DNA of 64,000 nucleotides from Bacillota bacterium (GCA_050951805.1 JBMNJT010000003.1:129163-193162); one strand, 5' to 3'; numbered from the stretch's first letter, positions 17,384-35,639 are shown. Translations and numbers: made by a program. Notes: a model not told the origin generated them from the letters alone.

Positions 17384-17416
17384 CTGTATCAAAACCTCCT
17401 GGCATGGCCGAACTCC

Positions 17417-17608: not shown

Positions 17609-17629
17609 GGCAACCTCCCTCTTGGCCAC

Positions 17630-17659: not shown

Positions 17660-17996
17660 CAGGATTTTGAGTAGCTGAGGAATGGAACAGAGATTCGCTT
17701 CAGCCGGCTACTACGAGTATGCTTGGGTCATCGCCCCGGGCACGCCATGGAGGCATTCAGGAGGTGCCCGTTGCCTCGTACATGGAGTTAGCGTTGAGTC
17801 AATAGAAGACTGAATTCACCGATGCCTGGATCGCCATGTGTCTCCGGTAATCCATGGATTGCCTCGCTTCAGAAATAGGGTTTCGACAATACACGAATCC
17901 TTATCGGAAAAACGCGCTCACGAAACGTGAGGAATATGTCTGAATACCGGTACTGCGACGCCGTAACGTAACAGGATTGAAAAGGAGGATTGCCAC

Positions 17997-19078: not shown

Positions 19079-19117
19079 TTCCAGTTGACTCAAGCCTCTA
19101 GGAAACCCAGGCCGCAA

Positions 19118-19369
19118 GAAGCAGCGATATAATACGTTCGCTTTCGTGGCGGCACGGTCGCAAGCAACAACCTGAGAGATGTTAGGGAATACTGTGAGGA
19201 GCATCATATGGGGCTCATTGAAACGGCAGACATCATGTGCCATGCGGTAGCTCAAGGGCTCATGTCGATTTCAGACGGTGAGAATCTTTGGAAGAGAATG
19301 AAGGCTCGCCGTCGCAGACTCCCGGATGGGGACTTCGCCGATGTGTTCAGGCGTGTCCAGGATTCTTGA
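19118..19369 (+). pseudogene. C-terminal remnant of a PIN-like protein
   Basis: Own translation: EAAI*YVRFRGGTVASNNLRDVREYCEEHHMGLIETADIMCHAVAQGLMSISDGENLWKRMKARRRRLP. It has an internal stop, lacks an N-terminus and resembles PIN-type partners of HTH/ImmA genes. Confidence 0.55.
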
Positions 19370-19872
19370 ACGATGTATAGTTGACCCCGATAGGGCTCGG
19401 TTATGATCAAAACCGGTGAAGCGGTGTCAAGAGATGGGAAATGAGCTGCCATGAGACTGGCGATTGTGAGATAAGCCTGGGCAACCCGGCGCGATTAACC
19501 ACTTTGTGACTATGTTCTCAAGGCTGATGGCACCGATGTAGGCGACGAGGGAGCGGTCTCCTGGGCTAATAATCTATCCGATGAAGAATTGGAGACTGTC
19601 GTGTGGGCAAGAGGACTCGTTTCCGACATGGCGGTACTCGACAATTTACTCAGGGGGGCGGGGCATTGACGTTGCGAGCTACCGATTGCACATGTGATTG
19701 AAGCTAAATTCCAACTGGCACCTGGAGTTCACCCTCAACATGATGCAGTAGAAGACGAGCTTCTCTGGGCGTGGCCTCTAGACCCGTCGCGCTGAGCTGC
19801 AAGATGTAGACGCCATAGCCCATGATGCCAATAAGAGCCAGTCCAAGTTGCTTGCATATGAACCTTCATCCG

Positions 19873-21213
19873 TCAGGCCAGCTGTATATCCAAAGCCTCC
19901 ATGGAGTCGCAGCGTTTCCTGGCATCGTAGGACTCCTCAATGAAATAGGCGACTCGGATGCCAGGTTGAAGTTCATGCTTGGGCCCCTTGAAGGCCTGTC
20001 TATTGAAGTAGTAGTTGTTGCCATCATCGTCCCTGATGAACCCGGCTCCAGATGGTAGCAGGTTTGCCACTGTGCCTGTCCCGCGGGGGCTGAGGTTTAG
20101 TCTGACGCTCTGCCAATATCTCTCAAGCTCCGGCTTGAGGTCATGGAAGCTATCGATGTCATTATCGGTAATCCCAAGGCTACTACAGACACTGTCGAGC
20201 TTTGTGTTGGTGCCCCAACCCATCCGTTTCCGTTCTCCCGCGGCATAGGCAGCATGCTTTTTCGCCATATCATCTTCGTTGCACGCTATGAGGACCTGAG
20301 CGATTGTGAGAAAAACCTCCCATCTTTTGCTCATGTCGGTGGAATTGTCTATAGCAACTGCTTCTACTCCACACCGAAGCGCGGAATCCAGATCCCCCTT
20401 GCCCAAATATGCCTTGGCCAGAACATGCCTGATAAACCACTCTTTCTTCTGGCGAAGGACCAAACGGAGAATCTCGATCGCTTCATCATGCCGGCCAAGT
20501 TCAACAAGGCACACACCTTTTCGGTATTTCATCCAGATCTCGAAAGTTGGATGAATCTCGGGAAAGGCTGTGAGTGCTTCATCGCAGAGGCATAATGCCT
20601 CCTCGTGGCGTGCAAGGGATTGCAGAGCCTTCACGCTAGCGTTGTAGTAACGTTCTCTGTCTGACGGCGTTCTGATTTGTTTGCCATCATTTCCAGTCCA
20701 ATAGCTCGCATTGGTCTCAAGCTCGTGGGGGTCGAGCCTGCCGGTCCATTCCAAAACCTGCTGGGCTGCGCTACTAGTGGCCCTTGGGCCAAGATAGTTC
20801 GTCACCTTAAAGCACGTGAGGATGTATGGAGACATGCGCGAATTCCATTGGCCTTCCGTAAGACGGACTATTTCATTTGCTGCCCCAAAAAACTCCTGCG
20901 GATTATCGGCGATTTCCTCGCGCTCCTTCTTGGCGTAGAGGTAATAGAGGCACCACGCGTGCACGTTTCGTATGGGGCCAAATTCCGGCCATTCCTGTTC
21001 TACCTCGTGGCATACAGCCAGGCTCTGCTCATAGTGGCCGACATGCTTAAGGCAGAATGCAAAGCCCCACCCGTCCCATTCGTTCGCATTGCCTCTGTGT
21101 TGCTCCCAGATGACGCTGTAGAATGGCAAGGCCTCTTCGATGCGGCGCCCTTTGCGCAGCTCCTGTGCTTTGCGCCGCAGTTCGCGCAGATCCGCTTGCG
21201 TCGACTCTGTCAT
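19873..21213 (-). CDS. TPR-repeat protein with C-terminal cold-shock/OB-fold domain
   Basis: Repeated TPR-like helices (GHYEQSLAVC, ARHEEALCLC, GRHDEAIEIL, GDLDSALRC) and C-terminal GTVANLLPSGAGFIRDDDGNNYYFNRQAF...LQPGIRVAY. Confidence 0.8.
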   Translation of the reverse strand: MTESTQADLRELRRKAQELRKGRRIEEALPFYSVIWEQHRGNANEWDGWGFAFCLKHVGHYEQSLAVCHEVEQEWPEFGPIRNVHAWCLYYLYAKKEREEIADNPQEFFGAANEIVRLTEGQWNSRMSPYILTCFKVTNYLGPRATSSAAQQVLEWTGRLDPHELETNASYWTGNDGKQIRTPSDRERYYNASVKALQSLARHEEALCLCDEALTAFPEIHPTFEIWMKYRKGVCLVELGRHDEAIEILRLVLRQKKEWFIRHVLAKAYLGKGDLDSALRCGVEAVAIDNSTDMSKRWEVFLTIAQVLIACNEDDMAKKHAAYAAGERKRMGWGTNTKLDSVCSSLGITDNDIDSFHDLKPELERYWQSVRLNLSPRGTGTVANLLPSGAGFIRDDDGNNYYFNRQAFKGPKHELQPGIRVAYFIEESYDARKRCDSMEALDIQLA

Positions 21214-21276
21214 TCTCCATACCTCCGATCAATTATGGGCTCTGCTGCAAAAGCGTCACTTGTCTGTCGCTAGCTC

Positions 21277-22116
21277 TTAAATGGCGGCCATAGCCTTGTA
21301 GTTCCGCTCCAATTCCGCAAAGTCATAACGCACCTCGTCAAGTTCGGGAAAGGCAAGTCCGCGCGCATGAGCTTCGTCCTTTAAGGCTATAGCCAGATCT
21401 ATGAAATCGAAGTCGCACTTGGCATACTTCTGTAGCGTCTTGTAGTACACATCTGCCCGCCTCATGGCGGCCTCTGCAGATTGAGACGGGGAAGCACTGG
21501 ATGATTCGCCGCCTAGTAGACTTGTGCGAATGGGTGCCCACAATTTGCCGATGCGGGCTGCGTCTTCACTGTTTGCGGGAGGAGTAGTGAACCTCAGCTC
21601 AAGTTGGTGCTTCGCTGTGTTGTAAATGTCGATTCTTGCTGGGACTCCCTGATTGAATAGGAGGTTCAGCCTTACATAGTGGTTGTAGATCCCGGCAAAC
21701 TCCGCTTGGATGCCCGACTTCGCTAGGGCTTTCAGAAGAAGGTCGGCTGCGGTCCTGGCCTGCTCTATTCTCGTGTGGTTGGTGGCTGGCGTATCTTGCA
21801 TGATCGGCCCAGGTTGCCGGGGTTGCCTTGAGCCTCCAGCCAAGCGGCAGCCTGTCGCAGCGCAGATCTCACAGAGAGTGCTTGCTGCGACATCATCGCG
21901 AATCGCCGCGAGATTGGCTGTGTATACAGCCCTATTGGGAGAGTAGGCCAGAAGAATATCGCCGATGTAATGCTTCCCCTGCGTCACTCTGAGCCTAGCC
22001 TGGTAATCGCGGAATCCGTAGGGATCAGTTTTGGCCAGAAGTTCGGGGCTCGTCTCCCCAATGGTTTTCTCCAGCTCCTGGTATTTCACTGCCAGCTCTT
22101 CTTTGCATTTGGTCAT
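21277..22116 (-). CDS. Hypothetical protein (279 aa), translationally coupled to the helicase
   Basis: ATGA overlap with the helicase stop at 22113-22116 and an intact ORF. Confidence 0.8.
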   Translation of the reverse strand: MTKCKEELAVKYQELEKTIGETSPELLAKTDPYGFRDYQARLRVTQGKHYIGDILLAYSPNRAVYTANLAAIRDDVAASTLCEICAATGCRLAGGSRQPRQPGPIMQDTPATNHTRIEQARTAADLLLKALAKSGIQAEFAGIYNHYVRLNLLFNQGVPARIDIYNTAKHQLELRFTTPPANSEDAARIGKLWAPIRTSLLGGESSSASPSQSAEAAMRRADVYYKTLQKYAKCDFDFIDLAIALKDEAHARGLAFPELDEVRYDFAELERNYKAMAAI

Positions 22117-25100
22117 GGCCTGTCCACCGCCTCCACATTCTTGAACATGCTGAGTGTCACGAGCAGGTCAGCCAGAGCTTCCTTCCCCTCGTCAACAGTG
22201 CCCTGTTGGAGAAGCGCATTCCGAATGTAACTTGCGCGGGTGATGATCCGGACGCATTCTATGCCCGAGTGGAAGCGCTCCAGTAAAACCTCGTTCATGG
22301 CCGCAAAGATCTCCGTATTCTGGTCATGGATGAAACGATGAACCTGGACATCCCCATTGCAGCCCAGCTCGACTTGGTCTCCCCTGATCGTCACTTCGAG
22401 TGTGATGTCGGGGACAGACTTTTCGTCCACTGGGGCAAGGCAGGGGCGGAACTTGCCTTCACCTAGGAGATATGCAAGAAACATCATTGCTGAACTCGCA
22501 TTTATCTGGCTTGCCCATGGACGAGATTCATAGCCCCTAAGGCACCTGTGGCAACCTTGCCTGTCGCAGTCGCAGCTTGCCACAATCTCATAGGCTTCCG
22601 CAAAAAGCTCCATCGAATCGAGATCCGCATAGATATCCTCGAGTCGCAGACAGTTGTTGCCGGTTGCATCGTATAGCGCCACGTATACAACTCTGTTAGA
22701 GCCCGGCAAGGGCGAATCGGAACTTGGGACGAAGTCGGCATCTATCATCATGCCGATTTCAGAATCATCCAGCTTGTACATGCTCTTGATCCCTCTGAGG
22801 ATGGCGAGGGAGGTGCTTATGTAAAGCGATGCGTCGCCGCATACATCCCGCTCAAAACCGAAAACGAGCGTTTCCCGTTCCATCGGATACTCGATGATGA
22901 AATGCCGTTCTGTCGATTGATCGAGGAAACCTGTATCTTTTCTTCGATCGGGGCTGATCGGGCCCCTGTTTGCGATGGTGAGCTGGGCATGGCGTGAATA
23001 TCCGGCCCATAGCACGGCTCTGTAATTGCGCCCCGTATCTATTCGGTCGAGTTTGCATACGATATCTTGCCTGAGAAGGCGTGGACGCTTCTCCGCAAAG
23101 AGCTCGTCTTTTTGCGCGGCGAAGGCGCGATAGACGCGGGACTCGTCGAAAGCAAGCCCCTCTGCCTGGCGGGATTCATATTCCCCGGACGCAAGGATTA
23201 TGAAGACGTCTCCTGCCATGTGAACCTGTTGGCCCGGCACGAATATGTAGGCTGCTAATTCTGGGTCGCGTGAGGATATGATGATTTCATCGGTGAACGT
23301 GTGCGCCCCTATCTCTTTTGCACGCCGGAGACCCTCTTCATCGCAGACAAGCACTTGGTCGTCCCTGAAAGCAAAGTCAGGCATTAGGTTCGTCTGATTG
23401 TAAAGGAACTGCTCGAAGGAGCCCACCCGAGAAGCGGCGGGTTCCTTCAATGCTTTGATCGCATTTGAACACAGCTTGTTCCCGAGGTATTGGCCTATAT
23501 CCATCGGGACATCGATGACGTTTCTTATCTCCTCTGCGAACCTCTCCGGCTCTTCAGCAATTTCTGCAATCCTCTGCCGGAAGCCCGCTTCATCCGAGAC
23601 ATGTCCTGCAAGCGCCATGGCGTTTGCATGCTCGACAGCGACTTTGAGGTTTTTGGCATTGAATGCCGGCGGTGAAACCACACCATCTATCATTCTGTGG
23701 GGATCATGGTAATAGACCATGTCGTTGGGGTTCTGTTCCGAACAGATTGTGACGATCAGCGAGTGCCCGCCACCTTGGCCCCGTCCTGCCCTGCCCGCCC
23801 TTTGGGCGTAATTCGCCGGTGTAGGGGGCACACCCATGAGCAGGATGGCTTGAAGCTTCCCAATGTCGATGCCCAATTCCAGCGTGGGCGTAGCCACTAC
23901 CATGCTTATCTTGCCTGCTGCGAAATCTCTTTCGGTGTCAACACGGTCTACCCGCCTGATTTCAGCGCTGTGAGGCCTTACCCGGTCTGCAAGCTCTTGC
24001 CAAACCTCATGGATTGACGCAAATTCAGACGGTCCTAGGTCGAATTTGAGCTGTTTGGGGGATATGTAGAAATACTGTTTGCCATCGGGTGTGATCCGTT
24101 CGAGAAGCGGCCCGCGGCTGACAAGATCTTTAACTATCGACTTCACCTTCGCCTCTCCGGTTCTGGCTACCATCTTCAGATGTTTGCAGTTGGGGTTGGT
24201 CGACAGCGCTCTGCCGGGGTAGTCACGTAATCCAGAGCGTTGCCCCTCGAAATGGATGCCCAAAAGCGATGTGGCCTGGTGGAGCGAGTATCTTATCGCC
24301 CGACCCTCGAGGTCTGCTGGCAGACGCGGAGCTTGCTTGAGTATGGCGCGTTCCTCCACAAAGACTGACAATACGTCGAGTTCATCCTGCTTAAACTGGT
24401 CAGCATCGACAATCTGCATGAACTCGCGCTTTGGCCCAATGTTGCGCGAAGGAATTGATATGAAGCGGGCAAACCAGACATCGAATTCCTGTGCAAGATT
24501 GCGTTCAGGCTCGGACATCCCGCTGGCGAACTCGGCCAATTCCTCTTGAAGGCCGAGGTGAGCTTCTTCGATATTGGATGGGTTGTGTTGAAGGCAGTAT
24601 ATCCTCAGCATTTCCTCAAAAAGGGCTGAGGCGAACTCATCGTCAAGGATTCGAGATTGTCTGGTGGCTTGCTCACGGCTGTCAACGAAGGCAAGCAGCT
24701 TTCTTCTGGGCCTAGTGGTATCCAGCATGGAACGGGCTATGCAATGCGTGTATTGATAGTCGGCAAACTTTGGCGACATCAAAACCCCAAGCGCCTCTAT
24801 TGCCTCGTCACCGTCTACGCGGAGACGTTCTATAGATAACGGCCCGTTCTCATCGTAAGCAAACTCAATTGACCCGTAACCGCCGATCTGCGCTATGGAG
24901 ACCCTGAAGGTTTCTGTGCAACCTCTGCCTTCCGCCGGCGCATCGTATCCGACAAGAACATATACTTGCAATCCTCGACTGCCCTCATCCGCTTCGAGGT
25001 GAGGAAGCAGGCGGCTGCTTTCAAGCCTGGCGATGCATTTTGCTGTATCTTTGCCATACACGAAGAACAGGGGGGCGCCACATTTGGTGCAGCTTTCCGA

Positions 25101-26543
25101 TTGCCCGGCGTGATACTTCCCACACCTGATGCATCTTCTGAGCAGGCCTTGGATTTCGTGCATGAAGAGGTGGACTCTGAAGTCGAGCACAGGATCGGGA
25201 CGGTTGTGCGGATTTGGATACGCTCTTGCAATGCTCGAGTCTATGAAAGATGCAGCAGCCAGAGATCCCCGCAGAATCTCTTCCGGGCTGCCTGCTCCGG
25301 ATATAGCGTCACTTACGGCGCCTGACAACTCCTCCATGGACTTCGACCCTTTGCGCAACGACTCTGCGATCGCTTGCATGCACGGGCTCGAAAGAAGGAG
25401 CGCGCGTGGGCCATCCGGTGCCAAAAGCCGATCAGGATCGGCGAGATCTTCGCGGGTGAAAGAGGTGCCAAGTAAGGAGTTGAGGTTGGCTAGCGCGGCG
25501 CCGGGAGAGTCCATTGAAGCCACATTGTATCTGAAAACCTTGCACGCGTTCGTGGTTGCGGATTGCAAGTTTGCCTGTGGCGGGTTTTCTGGACGGCCTG
25601 ACTTGGCAGCCGGACGCACAAGGTCGTATTCGTCTGGCGCTACGTCCAACAGCGGACAGATGAACCTGTTCACAGCTTCGCCCGAGTTTCTTGAATCCAA
25701 TGTGGCACTGCAACATATCTGCACGACGGGATTGGGAACGGCGTTCTTCAAGCGCCTGAGGAGAAATCGAAGGTGAGTCGCGCGATTGCCCTTATAGCTA
25801 TGGACTTCATCTAGCACGACAAAACGCAGATGATGGCAGCACTCTGTGAAAAGCCAGCGCTCCTGCGAGCGAGTGAGCATCCTGTCGAGCATCACGTGGT
25901 TGGTGACCAAAATATCGGGCGGTTCTGCCAGCATCTCGGATCTGTAAGCCAGATGGAAACGGCTCTCTCTTTCTACCGTTGCTTCCAATTCGTCGCGGGG
26001 AGTATCGCCGGTGTATACACCGTATGTTATCTCCGCTGCCGAGGCGCATTCGCCTATCCGCCGGAGCTGGTCGGCGGCCAGCGCATTTGTGGGATATACG
26101 ATGACAGCCTTTATCCCTTTTTCACGTTCGCGAAGACAGTAGTCGATTACGGGGATGAGGAAGGACTCGGTCTTGCCGCTTCCCGTTCCGGTGGCGATCA
26201 CGGTATGCCGGCAGGACGAAATGCTTCGGACAGCTTCCTCCTGATGCGCGTACAGCCGCTTTATTTTGGGGAATGGACCAGGAAGATTCTTGCTGAGGCC
26301 TATGGCTGCGCACAATTGGCCAAAGGGCAGTGCGCTCATCTCATATCGCGGGTTTGCCGAAAGAAAAAGGCGGCCGCTGAGCTCGAGAGATTCCATTATC
26401 CACTTGACATCTGAATCCCTCGACACCCCGGTCTTTAGAGCGTGTCTCGCCAGGTTGGCATAGGCATCGCTTACATGCTTTGCAGCCGCGATCGGGTCAT
26501 ACAAGCCGCCGCCATCACGTTGCATATAGCCTGCCCCCCCCAC
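22113..26543 (-). CDS. Large SF2 DEAD/DEAH helicase with DUF1998 Zn domain (YprA/DruE/DpdJ-like)
   Basis: LYAHQ, TGTGSGKT, VYPTNALAADQ, YTGDT, PPDILVTN, DEVH, CSAT, ATPTLELGIDIG, YAQRAGRAGR, internal CIRC..CTKC, LYDATG and CDC...GCHRCL. Start is GTG 26543 or ATG 26525. Confidence 0.9.
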   Translation of the reverse strand: MGGAGYMQRDGGGLYDPIAAAKHVSDAYANLARHALKTGVSRDSDVKWIMESLELSGRLFLSANPRYEMSALPFGQLCAAIGLSKNLPGPFPKIKRLYAHQEEAVRSISSCRHTVIATGTGSGKTESFLIPVIDYCLREREKGIKAVIVYPTNALAADQLRRIGECASAAEITYGVYTGDTPRDELEATVERESRFHLAYRSEMLAEPPDILVTNHVMLDRMLTRSQERWLFTECCHHLRFVVLDEVHSYKGNRATHLRFLLRRLKNAVPNPVVQICCSATLDSRNSGEAVNRFICPLLDVAPDEYDLVRPAAKSGRPENPPQANLQSATTNACKVFRYNVASMDSPGAALANLNSLLGTSFTREDLADPDRLLAPDGPRALLLSSPCMQAIAESLRKGSKSMEELSGAVSDAISGAGSPEEILRGSLAAASFIDSSIARAYPNPHNRPDPVLDFRVHLFMHEIQGLLRRCIRCGKYHAGQSESCTKCGAPLFFVYGKDTAKCIARLESSRLLPHLEADEGSRGLQVYVLVGYDAPAEGRGCTETFRVSIAQIGGYGSIEFAYDENGPLSIERLRVDGDEAIEALGVLMSPKFADYQYTHCIARSMLDTTRPRRKLLAFVDSREQATRQSRILDDEFASALFEEMLRIYCLQHNPSNIEEAHLGLQEELAEFASGMSEPERNLAQEFDVWFARFISIPSRNIGPKREFMQIVDADQFKQDELDVLSVFVEERAILKQAPRLPADLEGRAIRYSLHQATSLLGIHFEGQRSGLRDYPGRALSTNPNCKHLKMVARTGEAKVKSIVKDLVSRGPLLERITPDGKQYFYISPKQLKFDLGPSEFASIHEVWQELADRVRPHSAEIRRVDRVDTERDFAAGKISMVVATPTLELGIDIGKLQAILLMGVPPTPANYAQRAGRAGRGQGGGHSLIVTICSEQNPNDMVYYHDPHRMIDGVVSPPAFNAKNLKVAVEHANAMALAGHVSDEAGFRQRIAEIAEEPERFAEEIRNVIDVPMDIGQYLGNKLCSNAIKALKEPAASRVGSFEQFLYNQTNLMPDFAFRDDQVLVCDEEGLRRAKEIGAHTFTDEIIISSRDPELAAYIFVPGQQVHMAGDVFIILASGEYESRQAEGLAFDESRVYRAFAAQKDELFAEKRPRLLRQDIVCKLDRIDTGRNYRAVLWAGYSRHAQLTIANRGPISPDRRKDTGFLDQSTERHFIIEYPMERETLVFGFERDVCGDASLYISTSLAILRGIKSMYKLDDSEIGMMIDADFVPSSDSPLPGSNRVVYVALYDATGNNCLRLEDIYADLDSMELFAEAYEIVASCDCDRQGCHRCLRGYESRPWASQINASSAMMFLAYLLGEGKFRPCLAPVDEKSVPDITLEVTIRGDQVELGCNGDVQVHRFIHDQNTEIFAAMNEVLLERFHSGIECVRIITRASYIRNALLQQGTVDEGKEALADLLVTLSMFKNVEAVDRP

Positions 26544-26578
26544 TGAAGAAGTATGAGGGTTTAGAACCTAATCATGAT

Positions 26579-26606
26579 ATTCGCACCAAATAGATGAATA
26601 CCCTTC
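26579..26606 (-). promoter_or_regulatory. sigmaH-like promoter for the helicase arm
   Basis: Minus-strand GAAGGG-N16-GCGAAT. Confidence 0.55.
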
Positions 26607-26716
26607 TAGATTCGTCCATACCATTTGCGAGAATTGCATGAAATTTGTAGGCACAAGGGCCGGAAAAGGCGTTACGCAATGTGCAGTCGATCGATTTTCA
26701 CTATATTTGAAAACAG

Positions 26717-26744
26717 GAAGGGATCCTAATAGCTTCCTGCGAAT
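26717..26744 (+). promoter_or_regulatory. sigmaH-like promoter for the NTPase arm
   Basis: GAAGGG (26717-22), N16, GCGAAT (26739-44). Boxes and spacing are identical to the opposite-strand motif. Confidence 0.55.
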
Positions 26745-26811
26745 CAATTACATTATGGAACAACAATCGTTCCATTCATGTTCAATACTGAAAAGACGGG
26801 AGGGAATCAAC

Positions 26812-29800
26812 TTGGCCTCGACATCGATATCGAGGTTCTACGACTGGTTCGTTGACACGCTCACAGATGAGAAGCTCGATCAGGTGATCGATGAGGTCGT
26901 GGGGGGCGCAAAACATGCGGGCGCACCGCGCAAGCGTCCCCCCAAAGGAGGCTCGCTGCCCATTCTGCCACCCGACTGGAAAACTAGGTTCAGTTCGGAA
27001 CAGAAGCGAGAATTCGTGGCAATGATGTGGAAACGCGGCGTAAGGGAATTCACCGAGCACTTCCATGAGGAATACGCAGAGTGCAAGGAAAAAACAGACT
27101 CGTACACCCTCGACAAGATCGAGGATGAAAAGGACGAACTGATCAGCGCCTACGGAGGTCCGGCTGTTGTCCTTTGCCTGGTGTTGCAGCCACTCGACTA
27201 CAAGCAGGAACTGGGCCTTCGGATCATGGATGAGCTTGGCGACACGTGCAAAGCGCCTCGCCTCAGCGGACATGGGTCTTACGACTTGGCTTTAGGATTG
27301 CGAGATATTGCATCGGCGCTTCGCTCAGGCGAAATCGATGTCTCTGAAGACTCGATGGAAGCTGCCCTTTCTGATGTAGCCAGAGCATGGGCCGAATACA
27401 AGGAGACAAGCGTGGAGAGGCTCATCACTCGGATCGAGTCGACGCTCAACTTGATGGCAGAGCCATACACCGCATATTCATCCTTTTTCAAGGTTGCCCC
27501 GGGCCTTCCTATGGAAATAGGCGCATATGATAGCCTTGATGGGGATGACGCCCGGGCGGTCTTAGCCGAACTTGAGGCTGTGGCCGACAAGGTCAACGAG
27601 ACACGTGAGTTGTTATCACGGCCAGGATTGAGTATCGATGAAGTCGAAGAGCAGCTTACTGCCGCGAAAGCTGCGCATGAAGAAATAGCGGCGGCAACCG
27701 AACGGGTTATGACGCGCTTGCCCCAGAAGCCTAATCCCCCCGAGGATCCTACCCCCCAAAACGACTCAGACGGCAAGAAGATTCACCACACCCAACCGCC
27801 AACCCCGCCTGAGCCCGATCCCCAGTCCAAAGAAAAGGGATCTTGCTCGAAATCTACATCGGACTTGGATCCAGGATTGAATGGCCCCTCCGAGGGTGAA
27901 CCTGAGCCAGAAGAGGAGCCGGACACTGACATAACATCAGATGAGGAGCCTGGCGAGGCAGAAGAGACTAGTAATGAGTGGGCTGATGGGGAATCCCCGA
28001 GTGCTGAAGCCTGTCCCGCACAGTCTGAAGCGGAGCCAGAGCCTGAAGCAGAACCCGAGCCGGAGATTGAATCGGTTAGGCTCCGCACTTGTCAACGGGA
28101 AGAGTTGTCCCAACCCTGTGATCTGAAGTCCGCTATCAGAGATGCGCTGGCCGCCAAGGATTACGTTGTCGCTTACTGGTTGGCTCGCGAAGCTGAAGCC
28201 AGTAATCGCGCCAGTTTAACGTTGCCTTCATGGCTCTATGCCGCGTGCTGCCTGGGTTCGGGCGAGTACGCTGCGAACCCGTATGCTCTACGGGCCCTCG
28301 ACATCATCTACACAGAGCATTCAGCCCCAATGAGCGAGATACGTGGAGAGCGGAGGCCTGGCGAAAGCCATGCTCCCTATTACGTCATTGCCGCCTCCAT
28401 TGGTCCCGCCTTGTTCTCTCCCGACTATGCGGCCTTGGAATGGTTGAGGGATGCAGAACGCAACCTTGGTGCCAAAGATGAGACCCTTGTCTTGCTGGTA
28501 AGAGAGGTCCTAGATCTTCGCGCGCGTGTGAGCGGGGGCGTAGCTTTCGCGCTTGGGACTCAAGATCAGCGAGCCTCAGCAGTTGATTGGGGCGAAATGG
28601 CCAGCATGACGGCTCGACGGATTGAAGATTGGGTCGAGGTTACAAGAACAGCCAGGAGCAGGTACCTTCACGCTACTCGGGCCCAAAACTACCTTGCTAG
28701 CGTTGAGTCGCCTCTTTGGCCTGCAATCGAAGCGGCTATGAGCAATGACCCGAGCCGCATCGATACAGTGAATTCTGCATTGAACAGTGATCTATCAGGG
28801 CGTAAGGCCATGGAAACACTCATTGATAATGCGGTGAAGATTACTTCGGCCACAGCCCCGAAGCGAATAGCGCTCGAGGGGCGAACTCGGGACGACGTGC
28901 TCAAGAAGGTGGAAAACCTTGCCCAACTTCTTAGCGACTGGAGCGCAGCCGTTGCCCATGAGAGAGCGTTCCAGTATGGCGGTGGCTCTGGTGAAGGTGT
29001 GACGGCCCGATTGAGGCATATCGGCAAGCTGGCTTCGGAAGCCAAAGGCCAACTCTCGGAAGATGGAGGATCTGCTACTGCTCTGTCGGATGCCCTTGAA
29101 ATGGTGGCAAAAGCGATTGATGACGGCGTGCTGCCGCAATCCGCGGATGGCACAAGCATGTGCGATAGCGCATGGAAACGCGAACTCGTGTGCCCTCTCT
29201 TGCTAATTGCCAACCCACCCGCTGAGGAAATATCTAAATGGTTGGAACAGGGAAGCTTTGGGCTGCCCGACTTCGAGTCGACACGCAATGGGAAGCCGGG
29301 CTTTTCTGAAACCGCAAATCTCGCTGCTGAAAGTATGGAGGAGGCATTCTATGCCCACATCGTTCGCGGAGACTTTCCTGCGGCGCGGCTTGCCATGTCT
29401 TACCTGTCGCCCGTAGATGATGAGCATGAGTCAACTCGTTCAAAGATCAACGCCGCATATGACAGGGCTGTGAAAAGTCTGACTAGGGAAGCCATGAATA
29501 GCGTGAAGACAGCCCGCAACAAACTGGAGGAGTCGACTCTGATGCACTTCGTCAACGATGCGGCGCGAAGCCGGCTTGAAGGGGAACTTCTCACGGCCGA
29601 GGATTGGCTTGCAAGATCCCAAAGCGCTCCATCAGAAGCGGTGAATGTAGGAGAGGTATCCGCTCAAATCGATGCTGTCATGAGAGAACTCGATATCCTC
29701 AAGAAGGAACGCGCTCGATCATTGGCTCGACAGGTAGAAGAGTTCGATCATCAGTTGGATGTCGGACAGAAGGACCTGGCGCAAGAGGTTGCCAACGCGG

Positions 29801-32781
29801 CGCGGATGCATCTTCAGACTGCGCGCCAGAAGCTGGCGGAAAACGATCTTGTGTTGGCAGATCATTACATTGTCACTGCCGAGCAGGTGGTGGATCTTGG
29901 AGAGGTGTTTGAGGCCGAAGAGAAGTCTCCCAAAGATCACCCATATGTTCTGGAGTTCTGCGACATTGCAGGCAAGATAGAGCGCTACTTGGAGGATTAC
30001 AGAGGACGTCCCGCAGATCTCGTGTCAACGATTCTCCGCATCCGAAATCCTATCGGGCTCAATATGCGGCGCGTTCCCCCCAAGCGCGTCGAAGAGGCAG
30101 AGGCCGGCCTTGAAGCCTACTTCTTCCTCAAAGGCAAACGAAGATCGGCAGATGAACCATGGTTTGCCGACAACCTCAAGCTGCTTTTGAGCTTTGTAGG
30201 GTTTGGCAGGCCGAAAGTATCACTCACTGCATATGACTCGCAGTACGCTTACTTCAAAGCCACCATGGATGGCGAGAATATGTCGCCCCTGGCCGATTTC
30301 GGTTCTGAGCGAAATCGTTGCTACGATGTGGTGTTGATGTACGAGCGGCCTAGCATCACGCAGATGCGTCAGATACTTGGAAGGCACGGCCTGGAGACGT
30401 CTAGACCTGTTATCATCTACATGGGCAGAATGCGGCCTGCCCAAAGAGGAGAATGGAGTGCTGCCTGCAGGGCTGAAAGGATCACCGCCATGTTTATCGA
30501 TGAGGTTCTTCTGGTCTTTCTCGCCTCAGTCAGAGACAACAGACTGGAAGCTGCTGTAGAGTGCGGAACCGCCTGGGGGTGGGCGATGCCCTACAAATCA
30601 GCAGGTAAGATTCCCCCTGAGATCTTCATGGGACGGAAGCAGATGATAAGGCAGATAGGCGAGCCCCGTGGAAGCTCGCTTGTATATGGGGGTCGGCAAT
30701 TCGGAAAGACGACCCTTCTGCACATGGTCGTACGCGAGTATCATCGTCCGGAGCGTGGAAGCTTTGCCTGGGTTGAGGAGATCAGGAATGTAGGTTCGCC
30801 TGAGGATCCCTATGGTTCCTCCCGGGTATGGCAACTCATATGGAAAAAGCTTGTGGAGTTCGAGCTGTTTCCCAAAACAAAGTCGGGTTCGTCTAGGGAC
30901 GCTCAGTCACCTGATGAGATATCTTCCCGCATAGAAAGGCGCTTGAATGATGACCCGACGCTGAGAATTCTCGTCCTATTAGATGAAGCTGACCAATTCT
31001 TAGAGTGCGAGAAGAGAAGCAACTTCGATGAGCTCAGCCGAATGCGCACGCTCATGGAAAAGACCGACTACCGCTTTAAAGTGGTCTTCTGTGGCCTCAA
31101 AGACGTCCAGCGTTACTACACAGAGGTCAACCATCCGTTCGCCCAGCTGAGCAAGCCAGTGGAGGTTGGGGCGCTAGAGCCTCAGGCAGCAATAGCCTTG
31201 ATAAAGGGACCCATGGAGAGCTTGGGCATCTTCTTCGAAAGCGAAGATGTCGTCACCAGGATACTCTCATACACCAATTACCATCCCGCCCTCATACAGC
31301 TGTTCTGCGCCGAACTGGTAGAAAGGGTTCGCTCGCGGAGCGACGAGCCCCCATATACCTGCACCATGCAGGATGTTGAAGACATCTATCTGACTGAATC
31401 GTTTAGGATCGAAATGCGGAACCGTTTTGAATGGACCATTGCCTTGGACCCAAGATACCAGGTGATAGTGTATGCGATGATCCTGGAGCAATTGGACGAG
31501 AGCGACGGCTATCGGAAACGGTTTTCGGTATCGGAAATAGGAGAGATGGTGGAGGCCTATTGGCCCGAGGCATTTAGCGGGGCCGGCGTCGGCGACCTCC
31601 GTCCCCTTCTGGACGAGCTGATCAGCCTTGGAGTTTTGGTGAGGACCGAGGACGGCCTGTACCGTCTCAGAAGCGCCAATGTGGTTCGGGCGCTCGGTTC
31701 GCCGGGCGACATCATGTCGCGGTTGGAAGACATCATCTCGAAACCGCCGCCGTCAGATGACAAGTCCAGCATACTTCGGGTGGAGAGAGGGAAGGGCCAT
31801 ACGAAATGGGGGTCTATCACTCTATCTCAGGCGAGGGAGTTGGCGAGACCAGCCTCAGGAATTGCCCTTGTGTTTGGCAGCAACGCCCTGGACATCAATG
31901 GAGTAAGGCCAGCGCTGCAGACATTTCTCAAGCCTACAATGGACGCGGGGCCTGACTTGTTTTCGGTATCAGAGATGCCGGCAAGCTGCAAATCGGCAAG
32001 GGATGTTGTAGCGGCCATAAACCGCGAAACTTCGCGGCCGGTTACAGGTCGACGTATCATGTTCTCGAAGTCGTCATGTATGACGTTGACTGCAGAGAAC
32101 ATGGCAGAGGCGATGGAGACGGTCGGGGCCAGGCTCCAGAGGTTTGCAAGGGGCGGGCGAGAAGTAGCCAAGTGGATCCTGCTTCTTCATCCTGCAGAGG
32201 CGGAACAATGGTTCCTCATGCCCGAAAACGCCAGGGCCGGGATCGAGCAGCACATAGTTTCCGAGGCCAAGCTCGCCAAGTGGGATAGGGAGATGATTGC
32301 GCACTGTCTCGAATGCGAAGACCTGATAAACACCTCTCACGCAGTGAACTGCGTATACGAAGCCACCGGCGGATGGCCGTGCCTCATGTCGCAGTTTATG
32401 AAACGCGCTCTTGCTTGGCATAAAGAGACTCAGAATCCGGATGTGTCTGGGCTGGCGGCGCAGTTTGAAAAGGATTTTCTGGACAACGAGGGTGGTATGC
32501 GCGATCGTTTCATCGCTAGCTCTGGTATAGACGCCATCACATGTGGGCGGCAGATTGCACGCCTCGTTGCCGAGCTGGGACCCATGACATTGGAGGATCT
32601 ACACAGCGCATGCAAGTTGGAGGAATACCCTGAGTTGGCCAAGCTTTCCCCGGAGTCCATAGAGGCGGCGGCAGCGGCCTTCGTGGCATGCAGAGTTTTC
32701 GACGGCGAAGGTTTAGCCGGGGAATCCTCATTCCTGCTCACGTGCGACCCGACAGCAGCAAAGGTGGTGCTACTGCCTTGA
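26812..32781 (+). CDS. Giant (~1990 aa) STAND-like P-loop NTPase
   Basis: PY...IFMGRK, Walker A GGRQFGKT (30688-711), Walker B LVLLDEAD, YHPALIQ, a wHTH-like segment, then a second degenerate module ending ATGGWP. Probable TTG start at 26812 after GGGAGGGA; the ORF is open from 26638. Confidence 0.8.
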   Translation: MASTSISRFYDWFVDTLTDEKLDQVIDEVVGGAKHAGAPRKRPPKGGSLPILPPDWKTRFSSEQKREFVAMMWKRGVREFTEHFHEEYAECKEKTDSYTLDKIEDEKDELISAYGGPAVVLCLVLQPLDYKQELGLRIMDELGDTCKAPRLSGHGSYDLALGLRDIASALRSGEIDVSEDSMEAALSDVARAWAEYKETSVERLITRIESTLNLMAEPYTAYSSFFKVAPGLPMEIGAYDSLDGDDARAVLAELEAVADKVNETRELLSRPGLSIDEVEEQLTAAKAAHEEIAAATERVMTRLPQKPNPPEDPTPQNDSDGKKIHHTQPPTPPEPDPQSKEKGSCSKSTSDLDPGLNGPSEGEPEPEEEPDTDITSDEEPGEAEETSNEWADGESPSAEACPAQSEAEPEPEAEPEPEIESVRLRTCQREELSQPCDLKSAIRDALAAKDYVVAYWLAREAEASNRASLTLPSWLYAACCLGSGEYAANPYALRALDIIYTEHSAPMSEIRGERRPGESHAPYYVIAASIGPALFSPDYAALEWLRDAERNLGAKDETLVLLVREVLDLRARVSGGVAFALGTQDQRASAVDWGEMASMTARRIEDWVEVTRTARSRYLHATRAQNYLASVESPLWPAIEAAMSNDPSRIDTVNSALNSDLSGRKAMETLIDNAVKITSATAPKRIALEGRTRDDVLKKVENLAQLLSDWSAAVAHERAFQYGGGSGEGVTARLRHIGKLASEAKGQLSEDGGSATALSDALEMVAKAIDDGVLPQSADGTSMCDSAWKRELVCPLLLIANPPAEEISKWLEQGSFGLPDFESTRNGKPGFSETANLAAESMEEAFYAHIVRGDFPAARLAMSYLSPVDDEHESTRSKINAAYDRAVKSLTREAMNSVKTARNKLEESTLMHFVNDAARSRLEGELLTAEDWLARSQSAPSEAVNVGEVSAQIDAVMRELDILKKERARSLARQVEEFDHQLDVGQKDLAQEVANAARMHLQTARQKLAENDLVLADHYIVTAEQVVDLGEVFEAEEKSPKDHPYVLEFCDIAGKIERYLEDYRGRPADLVSTILRIRNPIGLNMRRVPPKRVEEAEAGLEAYFFLKGKRRSADEPWFADNLKLLLSFVGFGRPKVSLTAYDSQYAYFKATMDGENMSPLADFGSERNRCYDVVLMYERPSITQMRQILGRHGLETSRPVIIYMGRMRPAQRGEWSAACRAERITAMFIDEVLLVFLASVRDNRLEAAVECGTAWGWAMPYKSAGKIPPEIFMGRKQMIRQIGEPRGSSLVYGGRQFGKTTLLHMVVREYHRPERGSFAWVEEIRNVGSPEDPYGSSRVWQLIWKKLVEFELFPKTKSGSSRDAQSPDEISSRIERRLNDDPTLRILVLLDEADQFLECEKRSNFDELSRMRTLMEKTDYRFKVVFCGLKDVQRYYTEVNHPFAQLSKPVEVGALEPQAAIALIKGPMESLGIFFESEDVVTRILSYTNYHPALIQLFCAELVERVRSRSDEPPYTCTMQDVEDIYLTESFRIEMRNRFEWTIALDPRYQVIVYAMILEQLDESDGYRKRFSVSEIGEMVEAYWPEAFSGAGVGDLRPLLDELISLGVLVRTEDGLYRLRSANVVRALGSPGDIMSRLEDIISKPPPSDDKSSILRVERGKGHTKWGSITLSQARELARPASGIALVFGSNALDINGVRPALQTFLKPTMDAGPDLFSVSEMPASCKSARDVVAAINRETSRPVTGRRIMFSKSSCMTLTAENMAEAMETVGARLQRFARGGREVAKWILLLHPAEAEQWFLMPENARAGIEQHIVSEAKLAKWDREMIAHCLECEDLINTSHAVNCVYEATGGWPCLMSQFMKRALAWHKETQNPDVSGLAAQFEKDFLDNEGGMRDRFIASSGIDAITCGRQIARLVAELGPMTLEDLHSACKLEEYPELAKLSPESIEAAAAAFVACRVFDGEGLAGESSFLLTCDPTAAKVVLLP

Positions 32782-34115
32782 TTGACATGTCGGCGAGAGT
32801 CAGGTCCTTGCCTGGACCGTCGTGGGCGGCAGGCAGTGTTGTGGATGATCTGTGCATGGGCCGCGGGGTCGTTTGGGCCTTCCCGCGGCCCGCTCCCGCA
32901 ATAGAACTCATCACAGAAACAGTGGACAGGCTTTATGATGCAGGCATTGAGACACACGTCGTAAGAGTGTCGGAGCATGTAGATCCCGAGGGAGGAAAAG
33001 CGAGGCAGCGCGACATGCCTGCCCTTGAAGACACGATCCGAAAGGTCACAGGAAAGGCAGCCCCCCGCGAGCTGCTCGATGGGAAATTCACCCCGGTAGT
33101 GACGGTCTTTGATGCCTTGGATATCTGCGACGAGGTTGCGCAGAAGGCTGTAGATGTGGGCATGATGACCACCCTTAGAGAATGGGCGGTTCAATCCAGA
33201 GAGGATTATCGCAGAACCGGCATTTTTGCAGGCGTGATGTTGGTCACTACGGGGAGCGTCGCGGCCCATGTCGCGCCCGACAACGATTGTCTCAGGACGA
33301 GATGGCACTGGGGGACAGTGACAGTTGCGGAGCTGTGCCTACTTGCGAGGGAGATCGCTGCAGATCTCAAACTTGGCTGGGAAAGATCCACATGGATGCA
33401 GTGGGTTGGTTCGGAAGTGGCGGGAACTGATCCCGCATTGCTGGTGCATTTGTGCGAGCAATGGGAGCCTGCTGAAGGAATGTCTCAGCTCATTAATGTA
33501 CTGTGTAGTTATGCAATGAGGCAAGGCTGGACGGCGAAGGACTACGCCAGTGTCCCTCGGAACCTGGGAGAGCCCTTTACTCCGGGTCGTACGAGGCGTC
33601 CGCCATGCCCGCCAGAGCATCTGGCGGCACTGTACGATTTGGGAATGCTGGACTGGGAGGCAGAAAGAGGCCTGCGCCTCCACTCAGCTGCGCTGGCTTT
33701 GGCCGGCGATGTGACGGAGATATCCCACAGAGTGTGGGCAGGGCAGGCAGGCTGTTTGCTTCCGCTGTTCGATAGAGAACGCCTCGAGATCTGCAGGCGT
33801 CTTGATGAGGAATCGGGGGGCTGGCGGAACTGGTGCGCAAGGACTGAAGACCGCAACTGCAGCGGTCTGGCTGTTTTCAATGACTCCGGCGCAGACCAGG
33901 CGGTGGATGAAGGTACTCCAGTGATGGAGTTTGCCGATATCCGTCAATACCTTAGCTGCAACAGAAATAGATCCACAGCGGCGTTGCTTAAGAGAGTCGA
34001 TTTTTTGACGAAGGCCCGCAATTGTCTCGCACATTATACCCCGCTGTCCTGGGAGAACTTTAGCGCTGCACTGAAATGGCATGGATCTGCTGAGGAGTTT
34101 GCGGGGAAGGGATAG
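32778..34115 (+). CDS. Hypothetical protein (~445 aa) with C-terminal HEPN-like RNCLAH motif
   Basis: TTGA overlap with the NTPase stop, SD AAGGTGG, and RNCLAH at 34017-34034. Confidence 0.7.
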   Translation: MIDMSARVRSLPGPSWAAGSVVDDLCMGRGVVWAFPRPAPAIELITETVDRLYDAGIETHVVRVSEHVDPEGGKARQRDMPALEDTIRKVTGKAAPRELLDGKFTPVVTVFDALDICDEVAQKAVDVGMMTTLREWAVQSREDYRRTGIFAGVMLVTTGSVAAHVAPDNDCLRTRWHWGTVTVAELCLLAREIAADLKLGWERSTWMQWVGSEVAGTDPALLVHLCEQWEPAEGMSQLINVLCSYAMRQGWTAKDYASVPRNLGEPFTPGRTRRPPCPPEHLAALYDLGMLDWEAERGLRLHSAALALAGDVTEISHRVWAGQAGCLLPLFDRERLEICRRLDEESGGWRNWCARTEDRNCSGLAVFNDSGADQAVDEGTPVMEFADIRQYLSCNRNRSTAALLKRVDFLTKARNCLAHYTPLSWENFSAALKWHGSAEEFAGKG

Positions 34116-34345
34116 GGCTTGGACATTGGCTCATGCTGATAGCTAGCGCGAGACCTCTGGGAAACCCCGATTAAATGAAGAAGCAGGTCTAAAGCAGGGG
34201 AGCGACTTCGGTCAATCCAGGCGATAGCAGCTAAACTTGCTGATGGGCTCATTCCACTTCAAAAAGTCTGAAAAGGAGCTGTTTGTCTGAGCAGTTCAGG
34301 CGCTGTCTAACTTGCTTAACCCCTACGGGGGCGGGGTATATAGGG

Positions 34346-34773
34346 TTACGAGTAGGTCGTAGATGCGAGGTTTTGTGGGGTTACGTGGTTGGTTGTGTGC
34401 GGCTTGGGCAAGGTTAGCTGACATGTCGGTGGGCTATGGATATAAGCAGGGGTGTATGGTAGGTGAAGCACGGTTGCGCATTCCAATTAATGTAATACAG
34501 CGAATATTTCGTAGCGTTTTGTGCTACACTACGAATATTTCGTGGACACAATGACATTTATAGGTAATATATAGGAAGTAATGTATATTGGGGCATACTG
34601 AGGTCGGATTGACCTCGTTTTGGGCTCGGCTTGGTGCTATATTTCTCCAATAATAGACATAGCATGCCACATAGCATCCAGATAAACCAATTAACCCTCA
34701 CGTTATGTTAACCTACATTTTGACCCTACGATTTTTTCGTAGCATAGGAAAAAACATTACGAGAAAATCGTAG
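34346..34773. repeat. Five 17-bp palindromic motifs, consensus YTACGA-N5-TCGTAG
   Basis: Copies start at 34346, 34498, 34529, 34726 and 34757. The last four form two pairs, each exactly 31 bp apart. Confidence 0.8.
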
Positions 34774-34877
34774 TGTCGGTGGCGATCGACCCACTCGTCG
34801 CATGGTTGACGAGTCTGCCTCTATAGCTCACACGAACAATGAAGCCGAGGACCGCAGGCTTTATCCCCAGCGCACTC

Positions 34878-35639
34878 TCAGTCGCAGCTTTCACTCTGCC
34901 TTTGAGTTTTGGCGAGATGACCCATATAGCTATCGTAGATCTGAGTAAGTTCGCTTACTATTGGCCCTCGCTGTCTATATTGCCGCAGTGGCAGCCACGC
35001 AACCTTTTGGAGCATTACTCGAAGGTTTAGGTCTTCTGCGGTTACCTCTACAAGCCGGACACCGTGCCGTGCACAAATCCCTGCCTTCGTATTGTCGCGG
35101 CGTTGCTGTTCAACCAGTGCCAACGGATCCGGATACATCAGGGTCGTCTGGAAGTGCTGCTGGCCTTGAAACTCGAAAGCTGTTCTCAACCCCTTATACT
35201 CACGATCAAACTCCATTTTGTGCCCTGTTGATGTCTGCCGAAGCCATTCAGGCCTCGAGTGGTCGAGGTAGTCAGCTGACACGACAAGATAGTCGAGCCA
35301 ACAAGTCATCAGCCATTCACCAAGATACGGGACATTCCACCTGTCGTTCCGTATTGACTTGGCAATCTCCGATTCCACCCTAACCGGCCAGGTGGTGACG
35401 ATTTGCCTCTGGCGAGCGCTAGGTTGCCTTAGATCCATAACCCATCCTTTGGATTTTAGATGTGCAACCGCTGCTCGTGCCGAGTCCAGTGATGAGCCAA
35501 TGCCTGCAGCGATGTTGCTGATTGATTCCGGGCGCCTTCCAATCAGGAACAGGTAGACACTCTGAGCCCGTGGACAGGCTCGAGTATCATTGAACAGAGC
35601 TTCTGGGATTGTGTGCTGAATGTGCTGTCGGAAGGACAA
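34878..35639 (-). CDS. wHTH + Vsr/DUF559-like endonuclease-fold protein
   Basis: SISNIAAGIGSSLDSARAAVAHLKSKGWV (wHTH), then RPEWL...MEFDREY...AFEFQGQQHF...RDNTK...GVRLVEV. Confidence 0.7.
   Translation of the reverse strand: MSFRQHIQHTIPEALFNDTRACPRAQSVYLFLIGRRPESISNIAAGIGSSLDSARAAVAHLKSKGWVMDLRQPSARQRQIVTTWPVRVESEIAKSIRNDRWNVPYLGEWLMTCWLDYLVVSADYLDHSRPEWLRQTSTGHKMEFDREYKGLRTAFEFQGQQHFQTTLMYPDPLALVEQQRRDNTKAGICARHGVRLVEVTAEDLNLRVMLQKVAWLPLRQYRQRGPIVSELTQIYDSYMGHLAKTQRQSESCD

Follow-up and report, generated by a model that had tools for sequence, protein, structure and literature searches.

A putative nuclease-less TALON derivative and a cassette of a giant STAND-type NTPase and its partner lie back to back in a Bacillota genome

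We analysed a window of 64,000 nucleotides from a Bacillota bacterium (GCA_050951805.1, JBMNJT010000003.1:129163-193162; positions are counted from its first letter) containing five open reading frames (ORFs) that form two arms diverging from a short spacer (Table 1). The locus probably consists of two separable defence-type modules that adjoin each other back to back; it occupies a variable island flanked by the flagellar genes fliC and fliD. The minus arm encodes a YprA-type helicase, a 279-residue adaptor and a protein in which TPR repeats are joined to a cold-shock-like domain (TPR-CSD), and judged from its sequence it is a reduced, nuclease-less variant of the recently named TALON system. 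In the plus arm, two genes form a conserved cassette, one for a giant STAND-type NTPase and one for a smaller partner carrying a HEPN-type motif. An earlier note on this DNA had proposed one five-gene system and, as a fallback, two co-regulated modules; it is the fallback that the evidence favours.

The relation between the arms was examined from both sides. An alignment of 26 NTPase homologues was used to scan one genome per species, 583 relatives were confirmed, and the best 80 were examined with 10-kb flanks. A homologue of the adaptor was present in none of these 80 loci, a TPR-CSD gene at full score in one (L023; a 24-bit match in L086 was not counted), and a helicase like that of the window in six, with weak matches only. 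In the reverse direction, of 401 genomes from the window's phylum 12 had a TPR-CSD gene, and the only further genome of the genus that was searched had none; none of seven TPR-CSD loci sampled from the 401 genomes contained the helicase, the adaptor or the NTPase-partner pair. The pair was likewise missing from all three canonical TALON loci (L109, L203 and L206) within the fetched DNA. Because the adaptor was found in none and TPR-CSD in one of the 80 NTPase loci, and because the reverse test agrees, we regard the arms as separable modules, and the proposal of a single five-gene system was not upheld.

The plus arm recurs as a unit. In 45 of the 80 NTPase loci, a partner-family gene (a fragment in two cases) was detected directly downstream on the same strand with a hidden Markov model (HMM), and clustering placed a gene for a protein of ~425 residues there in 44 of the 80. 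Fused NTPase-partner forms were not found with the partner HMM. The NTPase relatives, at least 583, are spread over more than ten phyla and also occur on plasmids, and those nearest to the window copy are from Bacillota; no relative was found in phage records. Twenty-five plasmid records contain the pair, under no other annotation than "ATP-binding protein" or "hypothetical protein", and the Salinibacter plasmid pSR118 encodes a 1927-residue NTPase with a 377-residue partner (family HMM E 1.7e-61; motif RNRIAH). The expectation that the plus arm sits in defence islands was borne out when the nearest neighbours of the 45 pair loci were compared with PADLOC models. After removal of 8 characterised genes or NTPase fragments and 5 small distal ORFs, 112 of 125 neighbours remained, of which 29, in 22 of the 45 loci, matched at E<=1e-5, a raw count without a random-gene control. 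The models comprised BrxL, BrxA, BrxHI, DruF/DruL, SIR2-HerA, DrmMI, pPIWI, SspH/mad8, mad3, methyltransferases and PDC candidates, and the loci L019 and L041 add to the NTPase loci with defence neighbours. No model of PADLOC 2.0, Pfam or NCBIfam names the pair (Pfam recognises a generic AAA domain only), and no published description of it was found; the supplementary lists of a 2026 Nature study (PMC13581612) and of the TALON preprint may hold it.

Several related loci are arranged differently. In L055, which with about 15 other cyanobacterial loci lacks the HEPN partner and has a helicase gene beside the NTPase instead, the gene for a ~1100-residue PLD (HKD) + SNF2 helicase (PADLOC C3a139 "HKD+Snf2", 434 bits) overlaps the NTPase gene by 4 bp; L019, L022 and L067 also represent a partner-less variant of the NTPase, and L019 and L067 add large methyltransferases (type IIG-like, or DUF1156/HmaB-like). 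In L210, on the Azospirillum oryzae plasmid NZ_CP054617.1 (1702-13142), a 3,256-residue NTPase relative annotated as "RNaseH domain-containing protein" precedes the gene for a 525-residue "AAA family ATPase". The latter matches the partner family over the N-terminal, NOD-type part (E 8e-34), in an alignment that stops at profile position 405 of 427.

The NTPase of the window is predicted to be a member of the STAND superfamily, with a NOD in which the Walker A and Walker B motifs are both present. Numbered on the longest ORF, its sole Pfam match is AAA_22 at residues 1344-1491; for 24 homologues, Pfam returned only AAA_22, AAA_16, nSTAND1, ATPase_2 and TniB, and neither PADLOC nor NCBIfam matched the protein. 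An N-terminal part of ~1150 residues without a recognised domain is followed by a conserved alpha/beta domain (1151-1316), the NOD (1317-1688; Walker A GGRQFGKT, Walker B DEAD) and a C-terminal alpha/beta domain (1710-2047). Across 57 sequences, the residues of Walker A (GGRQxGK) and those of Walker B (DExD) do not vary. An AlphaFold2 (AF2) model of residues 1151-2047 built from these 57 sequences reached a pLDDT of 89.6, and residues 167-538 of the model were recognised by VIA-align 2 as a NOD of the STAND/ORC type, the best match being 2qen (Z 20.7, root mean square deviation 4.1, 325 of 350 residues aligned), followed by 2fna (Z 19.8), plant NLR resistosomes (Z 18.3 and 17.0), ORC/Cdc6 proteins (Z ~15-16.5) and CED-4 (Z 14.9). 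Foldseek agreed on the NOD. The searches gave no assignment for the N-terminal ~1150 residues, the alpha/beta domain preceding the NOD or the C-terminal domain, and a PDB profile search with the NTPase returned nothing significant. The C-terminal module ends at most 13 residues before the stop codon in 70 of 71 NTPase genes (43 residues in L063), including those for the forms of ~2,450 residues that occur in the cyanobacterial loci, so that the extra length of these forms must be N-terminal.

The partner protein was modelled from 41 homologues with a pLDDT of 84.8. Its residues 1-308 adopt a STAND/ORC-like NOD fold in the model (VIA-align 2: 2qen Z 11.6, TIR-NLR 11.4, Cdc6/Orc1 10.7, CED-4 10.5; all matches over residues 1-311), Foldseek returned ORC2 (E 5e-5), and 2qen was the best match for the NTPase and the partner alike. 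No P-loop lysine is conserved among the 41 homologues, so that this is a Walker-less NOD. Numbered from ATG 32787, W317, R332, R411 and H416 are the only invariant residues; R411 and H416 belong to an RNxLAH motif (RNCLAH in the window copy), of which N412 and A415 are conserved in at least 90% of the sequences. The motif lies in a C-terminal region that is helical in the model (residues 309-440), and this domain is a candidate HEPN-type domain, the Rx4H signature being present and the HEPN fold putative. A search of the ESM Atlas gave a weak lead (score 0.79) to clusters that partly carry HEPN_Swt1. The partner and whole NTPase families share no detectable sequence similarity (hhalign probability 0.2%), the PDB profile search with the partner returned nothing significant, and a complex prediction of NTPase residues 1625-2047 with the partner scored 0.00, which gives no verdict either for or against binding.

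The pair can be compared with Avs and other bacterial STAND receptors, of which 589 clades are reported in the accessible part of the 2026 Nature study (PMC13581612), and with plant sensor-helper NLR pairs. Like them, it has a STAND NOD whose Walker A and B motifs are intact (Z scores of 17-21 to plant NLRs and archaeal STAND-like ATPases), non-catalytic regions of very large size as possible sensors, a defence-island context and a nuclease-type effector motif. Unlike in Avs proteins, the effector motif resides on a separate protein with its own Walker-less NOD, the NOD of the NTPase lies near the C terminus after ~1,300 residues, and no PADLOC model for Avs matched. With HEPN RNase effectors (RnlA/LsoA, Swt1-type HEPN) the partner has in common the R-N-x-L-A-H motif in a C-terminal helical domain, whose arginine and histidine are invariant in the 41 homologues, but it differs from them in that Pfam HEPN models do not match it. 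The plus arm is a putative STAND-plus-HEPN design of a known general kind, and it is the split architecture and the family that are unnamed in the libraries searched.

The accessible text of Bell et al. describes TALON as an ARMADA-like YprA helicase combined with a NERD nuclease, a TPR-CSD protein and a "TBP" protein, and as computationally predicted, extremely rare and largely confined to Chloroflexota; TPR-CSD and TBP are there common to TALON and TOTE (TPR, OB, TBP, Effector), a conflict system credited to Aravind, Iyer et al. 2022 (Bell et al. 2025, 10.1101/2025.09.15.676423). In a sample of 401 Chloroflexota genomes we found two canonical TALON loci, L203 and L206, in which the gene order is helicase (1470 and 1477 residues, respectively), NERD+UvrD protein (653 and 649), a 190-residue gene product and TPR-CSD. 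The third locus, L109, is a metagenome contig and the closest locus with context to the window; here a 1466-residue helicase is followed by a 636-residue homologue of the NERD/UvrD proteins, a TBP-RNaseH protein of 396 residues that the window adaptor matches, and TPR-CSD. A fourth locus, L110, is a two-gene pair of TBP-RNaseH and TPR-CSD. A full-length TBP-RNaseH gene followed by a TPR-CSD gene was present in both metagenome loci with downstream DNA, and the TPR-CSD and adaptor proteins of the window are closest to this L109/L110 pair.

The helicase of the window contains DEAD (residues 99-286, E 1e-27), Helicase_C (854-921, E 2e-13) and MZB/DUF1998 (1247-1335) domains according to Pfam, and an insert of ~570 residues separates the two RecA lobes. 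It has ~65 full-length homologues at 24-35% identity, beyond which the matches fall off sharply to partial ones. The homology to the canonical TALON helicases extends from end to end: 427 bits over query residues 16-1473 for L203 (25.9% identity over 1407 positions in an alignment of 61 sequences), 485+229 bits for L109 (34-43% identity) and 215+169 bits for L206. A tail of ~140 residues after MZB is common to all 61 aligned clade members. An assignment as DruE3 was considered and rejected. The helicase scored 252 bits on PDLC00037 compared to 2042 bits for a true DruE3 (L085), and a canonical TALON helicase scored 245 bits; because a value of ~250 bits is far below that of a true DruE3 and like that of TALON, the protein is not a DruE.

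The TPR-CSD protein matches the PADLOC model PDLC01170, "TPR fused to cold-shock-like domain", with 204.6 bits over profile positions 3-366 of 368, as well as Pfam DUF7017 and TPR repeats, and is 37.6% identical (299 bits) to the TPR-CSD protein of L110 and 38.6% to that of L109. Two same-phylum TPR-CSD loci, L104 and L102, are of note in another respect: in both the gene adjoins Cas6, with Cas1 and a RAMP protein also present in L104, and in L102 it also adjoins a PIF1-like helicase with a TBP-TOTE domain.

The adaptor had no Pfam match. It consists of two homologous repeats of ~85 residues (repeat 1 versus repeat 2: hhalign probability 98.6%, E 6e-16) and a conserved C-terminal tail. Two close homologues exist, at 73% and 64% identity, and a phmmer search of 1.84 billion representatives returned 35 relatives, mostly of ~400 residues and built as repeat, RNase H, repeat and tail. 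The RNase H block, which Pfam finds in 22 of 28 aligned family members, is wholly absent from the adaptor and its two close relatives. When the repeat profile was compared by hhalign with the 190-residue gene product in the same slot of the canonical loci, it reached a probability of 89.6% (E 1.9e-6) for L203 and of 47.6% for L206. Comparisons of the repeats by hhalign with single sequences having Pfam TBP-TOTE or RnlA/DUF3378 matches gave no match, a PDB profile search gave nothing significant except for the RNase H block of the relatives (2kq2, E 1e-31), and the ESM Atlas had no usable match. We interpret the adaptor as the "TBP" gene of TALON/TOTE with its RNase H domain deleted, the TBP fold being putative.

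The minus arm thus resembles TALON in its same-clade helicase with full-length homology to those of L109, L203 and L206 and in its TPR-CSD and putative "TBP" adaptor genes, whose order and common strand agree and where stop and start codons likewise overlap. It differs in that NERD, accompanied by UvrD in the canonical loci, is missing from both locus and genome, in that its adaptor, with two repeats and a tail but the RNase H deleted, belongs to the longer TOTE type instead of the 190-residue Chloroflexota form, and in its origin from Bacillota, given that the accessible preprint text places TALON largely in Chloroflexota. There is no room for a NERD gene within the operon, because the helicase stop overlaps the adaptor start, and a Pfam scan of the flanking ORFs gave no NERD match. 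We file the arm as a putative reduced TALON because, compared to L109, both its NERD/UvrD gene and, within the adaptor, the RNase H domain have been lost. With TOTE it shares the TPR-OB protein and the putative TBP-type adaptor, which are nearest to the two-gene pair of L110, and the TPR-CSD protein weakly matches the PADLOC candidate PDC-M16B; as a TBP-TOTE protein in L023 matches PDC-M16A, PDC-M16 may well be the TOTE system. Unlike in TOTE, a large YprA helicase is attached upstream, members of the adaptor family do not reach Pfam TBP-TOTE (PF22721), and no effector domain is fused to the adaptor, since RNase H is deleted. With Druantia type III (DruH + DruE) the arm has in common a big DUF1998/MZB helicase whose RecA lobes are set apart by a long insert and for which DruE3 is the best PADLOC match, but the score stated above and the partners are different, and no PADLOC family, DruH included, matches the adaptor, the NTPase or the partner. 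The claim that the locus matches no named gene set therefore stands for the plus arm and falls for the minus arm, which matches TALON/TOTE, albeit without nuclease.

ORF calling and translation of the window showed all five reading frames open throughout, as had been described, and the component assignments (YprA/DUF1998 helicase, TPR-CSD protein, giant STAND-type NTPase, HEPN-motif protein) were supported by the domain matches, the NOD model and the RNCLAH motif. The reported gene overlaps are present as well: ATGA at 22113-22116 combines the helicase stop with the adaptor start, and TTGA at 32778-32781 combines the NTPase stop with a TTG of the partner gene, whose next ATG follows at 32787. 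The helicase copy in the protein collection (P0163) has 1470 residues, corresponding to the ATG at 26525. For the NTPase, TTG 26812 is the most likely start, because GGGAGGG lies just upstream and the N terminus then fits the homologue consensus MxxxxxxxFxxW. With these two starts, the spacer has a far lower GC content than the locus as a whole (54.7%). Scanning for the sigma-70 consensus gave no promoter within the spacer, and sigma-70 and terminator sites were no commoner than in shuffled sequence.

Table 1. Coordinates of the two arms, the spacer and other features of the island and its right flank
Feature	Position	Strand	Description
TPR-CSD protein (P0001)	19873-21213	-	446 aa; TPR and OB/cold-shock-like domain; sensor/scaffold part common to TOTE and TALON
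Adaptor protein (P0002)	21277-22116	-	279 aa
YprA/MrfA-family superfamily 2 (SF2) helicase (P0003)	22113-26543; 22113-26525	-	Longest ORF from GTG, 1476 aa; from ATG, 1470 aa
Divergent intergenic spacer	26526-26811	.	286 bp, 42% GC; presumably contains both promoters
Giant STAND-type NTPase (P0004)	26638-32781; 26812-32781	+	Longest ORF from ATG, 2047 aa; from TTG, ~1989 aa
Partner protein (P0005)	32688-34115; 32778-34115	+	Longest ORF, 475 aa; from TTG; 442 aa from ATG 32787
UPF0236 transposase, N-terminally truncated	13394-14260	-	ORF spans profile positions 177-392 of 400
Group II intron, apparently whole	14639-16404	+	Rfam D1-D4 14639-14809, domain V/VI 16323-16404
Intron reverse transcriptase/maturase ORF	15249-16310	+	353 aa; RVT_1 and GIIM
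HicB-like antitoxin ORF	16976-17392	-	
Short M78 peptidase ORF or fragment	18343-18792	+	Matches PADLOC capP (CBASS-associated)
Sir2-family gene	36551-37360	-	No PADLOC match; between island and fliD
CsrA ORF	37462-37959	+	Between island and fliD; probably part of the flagellar cluster, not of the island

The locus lies within an insert of ~26 kb between the flagellin gene fliC (11206-12681) and fliD (38467-40581), inside a flagellar/chemotaxis cluster. The statement that most neighbouring island genes are broken applies to the partial UPF0236 transposase and is in keeping with the shortness of the other ORFs, but not to the group II intron, which looks whole. The same genome of 2.75 Mb contains a second defence island on contig C2 (369867-382005 and 385168-394205) with two further YprA-type systems, giving three large YprA helicases in all. 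The first is an ARMADA-like trio of a 1771-residue DruE-like helicase, a 950-residue DpdE/DrmD-like SNF2 helicase and a 1325-residue DrmMI-like methyltransferase; the second comprises a 1391-residue protein without PADLOC match followed by a 1621-residue DruE-like helicase (569 bits on DruE1).

Traces of the locus were present in public sequencing runs. Six studies of sludge, bioreactor and landfill metagenomes contributed 14 DNA runs in which the central 10 kb was found near-identical; the source sample may be among these runs. Logan contigs of four RNA-library runs (X15-X18) from three studies also contain the locus; such contigs show neither strand nor level, and DNA carry-over into RNA libraries is possible. 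The X15 contigs span 20031-26453 in three pieces and 26800-34958 in one piece of 8,293 nt, and those of X16-X18 include parts of both arms. In the four runs, contigs start at 26765, 26769, 26797 and 26800, which hints weakly at a 5' end shortly before TTG 26812. There is little or no contig cover of 17651-19603 and of the spacer in these runs, and an uncovered part proves nothing. The highest summed-depth bin of X15 (17000-17650) contains the HicB-like ORF, and a 1,067-nt contig with depth 78 covers 17000-17590. Within the helicase gene, at 24624, contigs of X15 and X16 part from the window sequence, and contigs diverge downstream of the partner gene at 34827 (three runs) and 34958 (four runs), with one X15 contig diverging from 34394 on. 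These departures suggest that there are strain variants whose right flank differs and that some strains possibly have an interrupted helicase.

We infer protein-protein binding, RNase activity, a trigger and a defence phenotype in the following scheme. Both arms would be transcribed outward from the shared spacer. In the minus arm, the TPR-CSD protein and the tandem-repeat "TBP" adaptor would form a sensor/adaptor pair and the YprA helicase the motor: the cold-shock-like domain and the TBP-like repeats may bind invader nucleic acid, the conserved tail of the adaptor may couple to the TPR protein, and the helicase would act on the target. Having no nuclease of its own, this arm might block the invader without cutting it, borrow another nuclease or be heading to decay. 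In the plus arm, the giant NTPase would sense a trigger via its large non-catalytic regions and oligomerise on nucleotide binding, the dead NOD of the partner would join or dock on the oligomer, and the HEPN domains thus clustered would become an active RNase that cuts RNA and shuts down the infected cell.

Several observations weigh against our reading of the locus. As regards the TALON label, a tblastn search of the 97%-complete genome with the L109, L203 and L206 proteins (E<=1e-3) found no copy of the defining NERD/UvrD nuclease, none of the 28 adaptor-family members matches Pfam TBP-TOTE, and the helicase tail compared with an RNase H profile gave an hhalign probability of 0.3%, leaving the inactivated RNase H tail of the TALON type unconfirmed. 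As regards the HEPN call, no Pfam HEPN model matches the partner, and the fold searches, filled by the N-terminal NOD, barely reached the C-terminal domain. As regards the cassette, 35 of the 80 NTPase loci lack a partner by HMM (three of them with a tblastn match only, and several on contigs that stop at the NTPase), and ~20, mostly cyanobacterial (~16), have a PLD+SNF2 helicase beside the NTPase instead. As regards the independence of the arms, these share one short spacer, and both appear to have been co-inherited in two relatives at 64-80% protein identity. The latter was deduced from contigs of equal size: P0164, P0127 and P0007, which are among the nearest relatives of the helicase, adaptor and NTPase, each have a longest contig of 17,618 bp, and P0290 and P0006 each have one of 15,628 bp. 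In addition, the lack of a nuclease in the minus arm would be understandable if this arm relied on the HEPN protein.

These last points lead to the view that the five genes form one integrated system after all, in which the nuclease-less TALON arm senses or processes the invader and the STAND-HEPN pair is the effector that has replaced NERD/UvrD and RNase H. It would account for the loss of both nuclease modules of the nearest locus alongside three intact minus-arm genes, for the common 286-bp spacer between divergent arms, for the apparent co-inheritance and for the RNA-library contigs covering both arms. Adjacency of comparable parts also recurs. In L023 (6842-17789, a Bacillota metagenome-assembled genome (MAG)), the only other case of a pair next to a TOTE-type module among the 80 loci, genes for the NTPase, the partner, a DUF1848 protein (PADLOC RTasDUF1848), a 471-residue TBP-TOTE protein (PDC-M16A) and TPR-CSD lie on one strand, and in L041 (3421-15797, a Chloroflexi MAG) a 1650-residue Druantia-like YprA helicase (689 bits on DruE1) is encoded 68 bp upstream of the pair on the same strand. 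Yet the TOTE module of L023 has its own TBP-TOTE protein, and a few adjacencies are to be expected, as defence systems cluster in islands. The absence of the adaptor from all 80 NTPase loci and of TPR-CSD from all but one, the lack of the pair in the fetched DNA of L109, L203 and L206 and of helicase or pair in the seven same-phylum TPR-CSD loci, and the two other YprA systems of the same genome, which do without the pair, all argue for separable modules, and we consider an integrated system unlikely.

We think it very unlikely that the minus arm is a decaying remnant which no longer defends and merely accompanies a functional STAND-HEPN cassette. Both recognisable nuclease modules have been lost relative to L109, the island holds other degraded or mobile material, and the departure of X15 and X16 contigs at 24624 may reflect an interrupted helicase in some strains. 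Against decay stand the ORFs of 1470, 279 and 446 residues without frameshift and the retained translational coupling by ATGA, the helicase motifs that are still recognised with the E values given above for DEAD and Helicase_C, the preservation of the RNase H-less adaptor in the two relatives at 73% and 64% identity, and the RNA-library contigs covering this arm. That neither arm defends and both serve the host cell in regulation, repair or RNA metabolism, being in a variable region by accident, is hardly credible: neither TALON nor the pair has a measured phenotype, Bell et al. in the accessible text having tested ARMADA but not TALON (10.1101/2025.09.15.676423), and MrfA/YprA-family helicases include repair enzymes (cf. 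the Pfam name "MrfA Zn-binding domain"), but the distribution is patchy (TPR-CSD in 12 of 401 same-phylum genomes and absent from the other genome of the genus), the pair is found on plasmids and beside PADLOC defence genes in 22 of 45 loci, and the insertion between fliC and fliD lies next to transposase and intron material.

Taken as two separable modules, the locus contributes two things. The minus arm is, judging from its homologies, a new and reduced form of a system that received its name in 2025, and the window presents it as an intact nuclease-less TALON derivative outside Chloroflexota, with both arms in RNA-library contigs; a reduced TALON could serve as a natural experiment to tell the sensors among the TALON/TOTE parts from the executors. 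The plus arm matters more, being an unnamed cassette in which an active giant STAND NTPase is combined with a catalytically dead STAND module bearing a HEPN motif. We would propose only tentatively that the NTPase and its partner form a new and widespread anti-phage receptor/executor pair that acts as a hetero-oligomer, comparable to sensor/helper NLR pairs, and that might here serve as the effector arm of TALON. The plus arm is amenable to ordinary cloning and phage challenge, and if it defends, a split-receptor architecture would be added to bacterial STAND immunity.

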